DNA of 64,000 nt from Escherichia coli (GTDB lineage: Bacteria > Pseudomonadota > Gammaproteobacteria > Enterobacterales > Enterobacteriaceae): assembly GCF_024298765.1 (NCBI RefSeq), contig NZ_CP101210.1; one strand, 5' to 3'. This document shows, piece by piece, positions 9,001-12,000 of this stretch (position 1 is its first letter; every line of letters begins with the position of its first letter). A program made the position numbers.

Positions 9001-12000
9001 TGCTGCTCCTGGCCGCTGTGTTGCGCATTGTCCTGTATAAATAGCGTGGTCTGTACCAGCAGATATTCCCGGTTCACTTCGGCTGTCGGATAGTTTTCCA
9101 GGGTGAAGGTAAAACCTGTCATCAGGGTACGAATATTGCCGCTGCCCTGTACCCGACTACCTGGGCTACGCTGTTCTTCCATGCGAATGCGTGTCAGCAT
9201 TTCACCTTCACTCTTTGTGAAGTAATCTCCCGGCCATTCGTAGTGCTCATATTCAGCAAGGCCGGTTTCACGCGGATTAGCCACGGTGCTCTTCAGCAGT
9301 GAACGCGGCTTCATAAAGTCGAAATCATTCAGCACCCACTGTCCGCTGCGCAGACTTTCATTTGCTGTGATGGTATGGATAAACTCCTTGTCCAGTTTCA
9401 GCCCTTTCTGGTAATAACACACCAGCGGCGAATCTGCGCATGCCTTGTGGACATTAATGGCATCAGCCAGCACTAACGTGTGACTGTTCTCGCTGTGCTC
9501 AAACCACCAGTAGATACCCCACTCCTGCATCAGGCGCTGAACAAAATCGAAATCTGTTTCACCGTACTGCACCTGCCAGGCGCGAGTCGGATAATTTTCC
9601 ACCAGTCGTTTTTCCACTGGCCAGGGGTACTCATCCAGTACCTCATCCAGGATCTCCACCACGTTTTTATTCTGAAACGCTTTGTAGTCACTAGTGTGGG
9701 TCAGTATTTTTAACCACGGTTCGAGCCGCAGTTCATACACCACCGAACGTCCTTGATGACCAGCCACGCGTGCCGCCGTCACCAGCCCGCTGATATAACG
9801 TTTTCCGCCGCCATCCAATTCGATATTGACGCACAGATCTTTGCCCACCATCGGTTTGAGCTGCAGGTTGGCTGCGGGGGAAACATAGCCCAGGTTCAGG
9901 ATGTCAGGAGTTTTTAATTTAATAGAATAAGTAAATAGTTCCCCTACTGTTTCTGTACCCCCTAAGCTTGCAAACAGTAACATTCCATCAGGAACTGCGC
10001 TGCCGCTCAAAGTCACGTTATGTGTACCCGATCCAGTTAGTGCGCCGGATGGATAATCTGTAGCTGCAAAACTCATAATTAATCCTTTTAACTAGAAATG
10101 GATAAGTGCTAATAAGAAATCTTACAGAGAATAAAATATGCAATATATTCGTAGCTGGCATAAAACATCTCAATACTTATGCGTGCTACTGAAGATACTA
10201 TCAACCATATATGCCTTGAAGAATGCACCGTCATGTTAACCTGGTGGAAACATTCACCTAAAGTACATTAATAAAACTAATAAAATTATTTAATTTGTTA
10301 TTTGATATGATTATCATCAAGTCTTAAAATACGTTCTCCGGTTCTAATTATGCTAAAACCATAGTATTCTTTTTTACTTCCGGAAGAGAGCATATATTTC
10401 CCTATATACATAACATCTGAAGATAGCTCACTTATATCAATACATACGGGTTCGAACTGACCTGTCACTCTTTTCAACTTTATTGCATTGCCATATTTAC
10501 CTTCATATAAAACATAATTTGAAATAATATTCCCATCGTCTGGTTTTGAACAAATCTGTCCGTCTTGCAAATATACACTACCGGGTAACAATGGGCGAAC
10601 ATAATCACCAACAGTGCATCCCGACAAAAAGAAAAACAAAAAGAATCTCTTCATATGACACCCGCAGGAAATAAATTAAGCACCTTTTTGTATTTTTCCG
10701 ATAGAGTGTTCACTGATTCAGTTGTATCACCTACATAGTTAACATTTGCCAAATCAGCCACCAGTCCATAGTTAATTAATAGCCAATAATCAACAACTAT
10801 AGATGCTTGTTGTTCCATGGAATAAGAAGAAATTGACTGTAAATTAAGATCGTAATGATAATTTGCCGCCCAAGAAAATAAACCACGCAACTTAACTGCA
10901 TACCCTTTCTGATATTGCCAAACATGCATCATTTCATGAATAAACAAGTGAGAAGCACCTGCTACTGTTTCACGATCACCAGGCATTGCTTGCGATGAAT
11001 AATCTGAACTATAAACAGCATCAGGATAATACATTTCCCCGTTTGGGGTCATCGCTGTTCTTTCCCCTTGACCAGGCAAATATTTTTCATTGTGGATCCA
11101 TACCTTGCTATAATCAATTGTATTCTCAAAAATCGATCTGGCCAATGTTAATTCACCAGATGTCATTCTCCTTAATGACATATCCTTTCCCCTGGAAATA
11201 ATATCTTTCAGATAAAACACAAACGCCCTTTGATGTTCAATATTCCCACTTTATACAGTATTGATGACATCATCTTCATAGAAAATAAAATCAAAGCAAG
11301 TTATCAACGTTTCCCGTTATGATTTCTTAACATTAATTCTCAGCATTTTTATTAATCTATCTTCAATATCAATAACCGATGCAAATGATTACGCAGCTAA
11401 CATAATTCTCATCAATTGATTAATATCTGTAAACGCTACCGCCCCACCCTGATATCTTAATCTGCACATAGCAATCTTAACGTTATGCCCCATACATTAG
11501 TAATGTAAATTAAGAATTCGGAATATATCAAATTCACTTCATAAATTAATATCGGGAATGATATACACATTAATTATATTGAAGTAATGTTTTAAGAGTT
11601 GTAATGACCATGGAACAGGACTAATTCCAGAAACTCCTGTTGGGCAATAGCGCGTTTATCATCCTACATGCCTCTTACATTTTTTAGCCTTTTCTTTAAC
11701 GTCAGCAATTGGCTCATTTAATCAGCAATGGTATTGGTATTTGGCGTATTACCCCTGAAACCCGTCATGTGCTAGCACCTCACTATTCAATGAGCCAACC
11801 ACGCCAGTGTCCACTGCAACCACTGGCGTTCAGAGCGACGAACGAGTGGCGCAAGAGTAGGACTGCCGTCGGGCATCATCAAACCAATAGTGGTTGTTTC
11901 CGTCAAAATTTCATCAGGTTGCTATTTGGTTGCCGGCCGCCTTTATCCCCACATATTTATAGCGGGATTATTTTGCATCGTTACACGATAAAAGGTAGGA

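Follow-up and report, generated by a model that had tools for sequence, protein, structure and literature searches.

The C-terminal domain of VgrG2b (VgrG2b-Cter) is a thermolysin-like gluzincin delivered by the H2 type VI secretion system (H2-T6SS) of Pseudomonas aeruginosa (Wood et al. 2019, PMC6899460). It is toxic in the periplasm only, in a HExxH-dependent manner and with disturbed cell morphology and division, and PA0261, the small open reading frame (ORF) that lies downstream of vgrG2b, encodes the periplasmic immunity protein (PMC6899460). Here we describe a related pair of genes in a stretch of 64,000 nucleotides from an Escherichia coli chromosome (contig NZ_CP101210.1), referred to below as the window, in which a small HExxH protein is coupled to a 118-amino-acid (aa) lipoprotein next to vgrG. 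We conclude that this pair is very probably a type VI secretion cargo effector with its cognate immunity protein.

Homologues of VgrG2b-Cter are fused to VgrG or PAAR or, in Enterobacteriaceae, occur as stand-alone 'cargo' proteins; the immunity homologues of these stand-alone forms were predicted to be outer-membrane lipoproteins, and DUF4157 is a frequent annotation for the family (PMC6899460). One such pair, SARI_02727/SARI_02726 of Salmonella enterica subsp. arizonae SPI-20, was predicted in 2019 (PMC6899460), and periplasmic toxicity together with effector/immunity behavior in competition assays was reported in 2026 (PMC12992299). According to the citation of Ringel et al. 2017 in PMC6899460, Tpe1/Tpi1 (ACIAD0053/ACIAD0054) of Acinetobacter baylyi ADP1 belongs to the VgrG2b-Cter family and the periplasmic toxicity of Tpe1 needs its catalytic triad. 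Membrane-anchored lipoproteins are suspected to be the physiological substrate of VgrG2b-type enzymes. The stand-alone enterobacterial form with lipoprotein immunity is thus already published. Our literature search found no paper on the E. coli pair described here, which may be covered by a 2018 survey of vgrG islands (Ma et al., 'VT modules').

A VgrG2b-type metallopeptidase coupled to a small lipoprotein

The effector gene (10651..11181, minus strand; ORF call and RefSeq CDS) encodes a leaderless gluzincin metallopeptidase of the VgrG2b-Cter/Tpe1 family. The initial annotation had described a HExxH protein of 189 aa, and the corresponding ORF, which begins with GTG at 11220 and stops at 10651, does exist; however, the ATG at 11181 is favored by both RefSeq and the alignment of homologues, so that the product is likely to be 176 aa long, with the N-terminus MSLRRMTSGE. 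No N-terminal hydrophobic stretch can be read from its sequence. In RefSeq the protein (WP_052263728) goes by the legacy name of 'type IV secretion protein Rhs'.

Searching the PDB with phmmer gave a single strong match, the P. aeruginosa VgrG2b effector domain (6h56_A, E 3.7e-20, 75.7 bits), in which effector residues 4-138 align with residues 99-233 of the chain. The HEMMH zinc-binding and catalytic motif (H82, E83 and H86; 10924..10938, minus strand, codons read from the sequence) and E123, the predicted third zinc ligand, located in a conserved SMEQQ motif (10813..10815, minus strand, from the alignment), fall opposite H935, E936, H939 and E983 of VgrG2b, SMEQQ being aligned with the 'IEQQ' of 6h56. 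The spacing of E123 comes to 41 residues and 7 gap positions, equal to the 48 residues which separate H935 from E983 in VgrG2b. These four effector residues are invariant in an alignment of 21 homologues, all of them stand-alone proteins of 160-200 aa from Enterobacterales with 45-68% identity. Because the zinc and catalytic residues are invariant in these homologues and the match is to a solved metallopeptidase domain, HEMMH is not a chance occurrence of HExxH. An AF2 model built on the 21-homologue alignment (pLDDT 89.9, pTM 0.88) was compared with the PDB by Foldseek, which placed chains A and B of 6h56 at the top (E 8.6e-9, probability 1.00, TM 0.64, with 34% identity across 158 columns), every other match having an E value above 1. 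Sequence, catalytic residues and predicted fold together establish the effector as a member of the VgrG2b-Cter family. The effector is also 43% identical (E 2e-46) to a Salmonella stand-alone effector that follows clpV in a SPI-20-type cluster with a DUF7480 lipoprotein, a figure which applies to the SPI-20-type orthologue at locus L029, which may be SARI_02727 itself.

The DUF4157-type label first proposed for this protein did not survive the Pfam search, which returned zero matches for the effector even at E<=10, DUF4157 included; NCBIfam also gave zero matches. PF13699 (displayed as eCIS_core), which we take to be the accession of DUF4157, is a short, HExxH-centered domain and in this resembles the effector family, 13 of the 21 relatives matching it weakly (E 0.005-0.1); none of them, however, reaches E<=0.001.

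The candidate immunity gene (10298..10654, minus strand; ORF call and raw sequence) encodes the 118-aa lipoprotein. Its start codon (ATG, 10654-10652) overlaps the effector stop codon (TGA, 10653-10651) as ATGA, and reading of the raw sequence bore out both this overlap and the lipobox that had been noticed at the outset. The N-terminus, MKRFFLFFFLSGC-TV as read by eye, carries the lipobox LSGC at residues 10-13, with Cys13 followed by Thr at position +2; since this residue is not Asp, sorting to the outer membrane is probable. Relatives of the lipoprotein were found only in E. coli and in Citrobacter farmeri (46% identical), by word-seeded searches of 5.8 billion proteins and exhaustive HMMER searches of 1.84 billion representatives. 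In the latter, a profile made from the E. coli and C. farmeri lipoproteins recovered near-identical proteins or fragments and one 3183-aa repetitive protein (P0131), which on reading was judged a compositional artefact. Position, translational coupling, the export signal and analogy with the described pairs make an immunity function of the lipoprotein probable.

The vgrG-Rhs island and the contexts of related pairs

The window corresponds to the E. coli chromosome near ansP-yncE-pqqU and is 99.9% identical to strain 14EC020 save for a short variable stretch at the Rhs N-terminus. On the minus strand the gene order is HExxH protein, 118-aa lipoprotein, vgrG, Eag-type chaperone and prePAAR/PAAR-Rhs. 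The placement of the pair immediately upstream of vgrG was confirmed: vgrG (8082..10076, minus strand), which encodes a 664-aa spike protein and possible carrier (TIGR03361 at 561 bits), begins past an AT-rich spacer of 221 bp (10077..10297; sequence and GC profile), on the minus strand of which a terminator-like site was sought and none was found. It is followed by the gene of a DcrB-related (Eag-type) chaperone for the downstream prePAAR-Rhs (7579..8031, minus strand; RefSeq, the C. farmeri orthologue matching Pfam DcrB), then by the prePAAR/PAAR-Rhs gene, the second effector of the island (3184..7560, minus strand; ORF and RefSeq, with the domain set taken from the C. farmeri orthologue). 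On the other side, an AT-rich noncoding leader (11182..11446, GC 0.30-0.34) precedes the effector. As had been stated, the pair is richer in AT than its flanks: GC is 0.32-0.38 in the two genes and in the leader before them vs 0.50-0.54 in the vgrG core and ansP. The island-specific DNA ends on the right at about 11447, where 563 pair-less genomes begin to match. At the site of the pair, E. coli K-12 carries different genes, namely yncG, yncH and an rhsE remnant.

Among 5426 complete E. coli genomes, 223 (~4%) carried the pair, nearly the same number as carried the vgrG type of this island (234); the 563 further genomes match just the flank from 11447 on. At the site, other E. coli have either ISEc1, as in one of these 563 genomes, which has no vgrG there, or an island in a degraded state. 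In E2348/69 (L003, 7037-10081) the pair is intact, the overlap being replaced by a 13-nt gap and the lipoprotein being 112 aa long, and the adjoining vgrG and Rhs genes are annotated as truncated pseudogenes. Decayed alleles of the effector (P0012, P0008, P0015 and P0021) were also seen in E. coli and include shorter fragments; one allele of 135 aa (87 member sequences) ends just before the zinc ligand E123, and another of 164 aa has a 12-residue in-frame deletion.

Ten contexts of the effector/partner pair were compared, and all the relatives inspected have a small envelope-targeted ORF right after the effector. The gene-neighborhood comparison proposed in the initial annotation showed an association with T6SS components: linkage to T6SS genes (vgrG, hcp or a T6SS cluster) was found in 5 of the 10 contexts, and three relatives, from Serratia rubidaea, Erwinia rhapontici and a Kosakonia-type contig, are without it within 7-8 kb. 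In C. farmeri, the same effector-lipoprotein-vgrG-DcrB-PAAR-Rhs module stands at the end of a complete T6SS cluster. The Enterobacter hormaechei pair follows a remnant tssB-tssC-tssK-clpV fragment, the Salmonella enterica locus has the SPI-20-type order tssL-ompA-hcp-clpV-effector-DUF7480, and an orphan hcp adjoins the pair in metagenome contig L023 and in Serratia fonticola. The S. rubidaea pair lies between housekeeping genes. In E. rhapontici (L027, 4778-8793), four tandem effector/DUF7480 pairs are found within an oligopeptide-type ABC transporter operon, the last of the four effectors being truncated to 83 aa. In the Kosakonia-type metagenome contig L026 (5922-7958, effector P0112), the pair comes right after the genes for a phage lysozyme and for Rz-type lysis functions. 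The region is prophage-like and has an RNase-A-like toxin and a CdiI-like gene as well, which suggests phage carriage of the effector cassette. Scattered contexts of this kind are typical of orphan T6SS effector/immunity cassettes. Linkage to vgrG and linkage to hcp both occur among them.

Two metagenome contigs (L023, 442-2247; L025, 168-1946) encode the closest effectors outside E. coli and Citrobacter, 60% identical to that of the window; behind each stand two or three small lipoproteins, paralogous and in tandem, an immunity-gene array whose members score 26-42.8 bits with NF045617. In C. farmeri (L004, 7000-7980), a fragment of 326 aa is located 20 nt upstream of the effector. It duplicates about 215 N-terminal residues of the downstream vgrG product (77-82% identical), has an unrelated Ala/Gly-rich N-terminal extension, and is the footprint of a recombination between vgrG copies; a similar vgrG remnant was sought upstream of the E. 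coli effector and none was found.

Other features of the island and its flanks were recorded. The final ~120 codons of vgrG (8082-8400) are AT-rich (GC 0.36-0.41 over 8000-8400), unlike the rest of the gene, and the last ~50 residues of VgrG fail to align with C. farmeri VgrG, which is otherwise 74% identical; this end may be a swapped cargo- or PAAR-specific tip. The Rhs stop sits just 40 aa past the DPIGLAGG core-end motif and is overlapped in another frame by a 107-aa ORF (2898-3221, minus strand), next to which lies a 100-aa ORF (2603-2905, minus strand). Both are without Pfam or NCBIfam match, and they look like a C-terminal toxin split off by a frameshift and its immunity gene. The far end of the island (1431-2552) holds the frameshifted remnant of an ISAs1-family transposase and a type I toxin gene of the SymE family. 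A search of 9900-12200 with Rfam gave a sub-threshold chance snoRNA as its sole match, a repeat scan gave nothing beyond repeats internal to Rhs, and a promoter/terminator scan was uninformative. Further along the window (~48350-49150 and ~58930-63080), according to the 14EC020 annotation, ydcF has an internal stop and a frameshifted DUF2773 gene adjoins an IS200C copy; of the phenylacetate (paa) operon, paaY and a paaX fragment alone remain, implying that part of it was deleted relative to K-12.

Proposed function and alternative explanations

The conclusion that the pair is a T6SS effector with its immunity protein is carried by the homology, fold and conserved catalytic residues of the enzyme, the gene coupling and lipobox, the T6SS linkage and the accessory distribution. 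We infer that the 176-aa effector, made without a signal peptide, would be loaded onto a T6SS projectile and fired into neighboring Gram-negative cells, where it would act in the periplasm. In characterized members of the family, damage to the envelope and to the division site depends on the HExxH residues. The translationally coupled lipoprotein would undergo export and lipidation, probably with sorting to the outer membrane, where it would face the periplasm and neutralize toxin arriving from outside or delivered by sibling cells. The carrier could be VgrG, since vgrG adjoins the pair in E. coli and C. farmeri, or Hcp, since an orphan hcp stands beside it in two relatives; the effector is of ~20 kDa, a size compatible with the Hcp lumen. 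The secreted, periplasm-acting zinc metallopeptidase with a periplasmic lipoprotein as immunity protein, linked to vgrG, that was put forward in the initial annotation is thus supported and matches a characterized family (PMC6899460, PMC12992299).

Several observations weigh against this interpretation, the first group of which concerns the lipoprotein. It scores 30.9 bits (E 2.3e-7) with NF045617, 'putative T6SS immunity periplasmic lipoprotein', under the cutoff of 43 bits, and Pfam, DUF7480 (PF24295) included, gave zero matches for it at E<=10. In its favor, it and its counterparts of the closest clade all match NF045617 over nearly the whole profile, at 26-42.8 bits; the partners of more distant effectors reach 102-106 bits and carry DUF7480. 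When compared by hhalign with an alignment of 23 DUF7480 sequences, the lipoprotein gave E 4.5e-5 with the signal peptides included, and the mature parts alone gave E 0.016 with a probability of 2.8%. A clade profile of seven mature-only sequences, five of them intermediates, gave E 2.2e-4 with a probability of 45% over 84 columns, which is still weak; in that alignment Cys35 and Cys71 line up with Cys49 and Cys91, the two invariant cysteines of DUF7480. The AF2 model of the lipoprotein was poor (pLDDT 57) and was left out of the fold search. Tentatively, the lipoprotein may be regarded as a fast-diverging branch of the PA0261/SARI_02726 immunity family, for which family thresholds are not reached.

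A second group of observations concerns the delivery machine and would fit a module in which the genes are as proposed above but the effector goes undelivered, since the T6SS core is broken, and the pair is a relic, at most with a lipoprotein that protects against strains still firing the toxin. The core was sought by looking at the metV and aspV loci themselves and with a CFT073 tssC probe, which took the place of a C. farmeri tssM-tagF probe that had failed as positive control, no listed match covering it. In 14EC020 the aspV locus was inspected and has no T6SS, and RefSeq annotates the metV T6SS-1 (L020) with an ISEc12 copy splitting tssF, a frameshift in tssH and an internal stop in the VasL gene. 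The metV T6SS-1 of the avian pathogenic E. coli (APEC) O78:H4 strain E12049 (L021/L022) has tssG split by an independent ISEc12 and a tssH annotated as frameshifted. As this metV cluster is the only T6SS core found in each of the two carrier genomes inspected, delivery in this lineage is doubtful. The pseudogenes beside the intact pair of E2348/69 and the truncated effector alleles point the same way. However, the window has intact ORFs for the effector, its immunity protein, VgrG and Eag; the core was inspected in 2 of ~223 carriers, the source strain itself being seen across 64 kb; the tssF::ISEc12 arrangement occurs in just 7 genomes; frameshift calls can be assembly errors; and a third, rarer T6SS type is possible. 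With a combined probe, the best 60 island-bearing genomes all had two additional matching places, consistent with T6SS-1 tssC, a reading confirmed by inspection in two genomes only, 14EC020 and E12049. At least some members of the lineage thus seem to have a broken delivery machine, which bears on the present state of the module and not on its nature, and we regard a stranded relic as a possible but rather doubtful account of the pair. An action mainly on eukaryotic cells, for instance by avian pathogenic strains, was also considered, as VgrG2b is described as a trans-kingdom effector that binds the gamma-tubulin ring complex and promotes epithelial uptake (PMC4453011, PMC6899460), and many of the carriers listed are avian or APEC isolates. 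The tightly coupled periplasmic lipoprotein is nevertheless the signature of an antibacterial toxin, and the stand-alone homologues of Salmonella and Acinetobacter were shown to be antibacterial, making an anti-host role very unlikely.

The remaining observations concern the contexts without T6SS genes. The E. rhapontici and S. rubidaea pairs have no T6SS gene within 7-8 kb, and the Kosakonia-type pair lies inside a prophage without nearby T6SS genes. Such pairs, flanked by housekeeping genes or next to phage lysis genes, and the lack of a Pfam or NCBIfam match for the enzyme would suit a non-secreted system, either a peptidase with a housekeeping or regulatory role and a lipoprotein as its partner, or mobile-element cargo such as a prophage moron acting on the envelope of its producer. 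Yet the homology of the enzyme is to a proven T6SS effector domain, the pair occurs in just 4% of E. coli genomes, and half of the contexts show the pair linked to vgrG, hcp or a T6SS cluster. Furthermore, as the enzyme has no signal peptide and its partner is exported, the two would not meet in the producing cell unless the enzyme were imported. We consider a non-secreted system highly improbable. A housekeeping peptidase was rejected as a poor fit to the accessory distribution and the effector homology, and a classical cytoplasmic toxin-antitoxin pair as a poor fit to the export of the partner.

Within the effector/immunity interpretation, the E. coli and C. farmeri branch could form a distinct specificity class, with a branch-specific insertion just before the catalytic helix and a short, fast-evolving, barely DUF7480-like lipoprotein restricted to both species, the pair being kept after loss of the T6SS core in some lineages, avian pathogenic ones included. 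We judge this unlikely. If true, retention of the pair after core loss would imply a T6SS-independent benefit, such as immunity-only defense or an addiction-like effect.

Comparison with described effector/immunity pairs

Our results leave the current understanding of T6SS biology unchanged. The name 'type IV secretion protein Rhs', under which databases list this product of ~4% of complete E. coli genomes, is misleading and is corrected here, and an unnamed lipoprotein receives a probable function. A small stand-alone E. coli version with its own immunity gene would be a convenient system for finding the VgrG2b-type substrate, and the apparent decay of the T6SS core around an intact island provides a small, usable case of effector/immunity modules outliving their delivery machine.

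When set beside VgrG2b/PA0261, the E. coli pair has a homologous catalytic domain with the same zinc site, made of HExxH and a downstream Glu, and a conserved N-terminal segment (SIFENTIDYSKVWIH in the E. coli effector vs GVFGDSIDYSTVRLR in VgrG2b). In both cases a small envelope-targeted ORF lies directly downstream, and the genes belong to a vgrG satellite island and not to a core cluster. The E. coli effector differs in being a free-standing protein of 176 aa, whereas the VgrG2b domain is fused to the spike via DUF2345 and TTR, and in having additional residues (~8-12) ahead of the HExxH helix. Its partner, a lipoprotein, resembles the immunity family of PA0261 only marginally.

The closest likeness in organization is to SARI_02727/SARI_02726, a stand-alone, cargo-type pair of similar size (188-189 aa) in which a leaderless enzyme is followed by an overlapping downstream lipoprotein gene. 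The Salmonella pair is nevertheless located in a core cluster right after clpV, whereas that of E. coli is in an orphan vgrG-Rhs island by ansP, and SARI_02726 is a 154-aa DUF7480/NF045617 protein, to which the 118-aa E. coli lipoprotein has no significant pairwise similarity (E 0.07). Tpe1/Tpi1, likened here by its published description, is also a stand-alone T6SS metallopeptidase cargo effector with the immunity gene next to it; Tpi1, in contrast, is not a lipoprotein, a transmembrane helix serving as its anchor in the inner membrane. Taken together, these comparisons indicate that the E. coli pair is not categorically new: it is a previously uncharacterized member of an effector/immunity family that is already published and validated by experiment, and its immunity branch is divergent.

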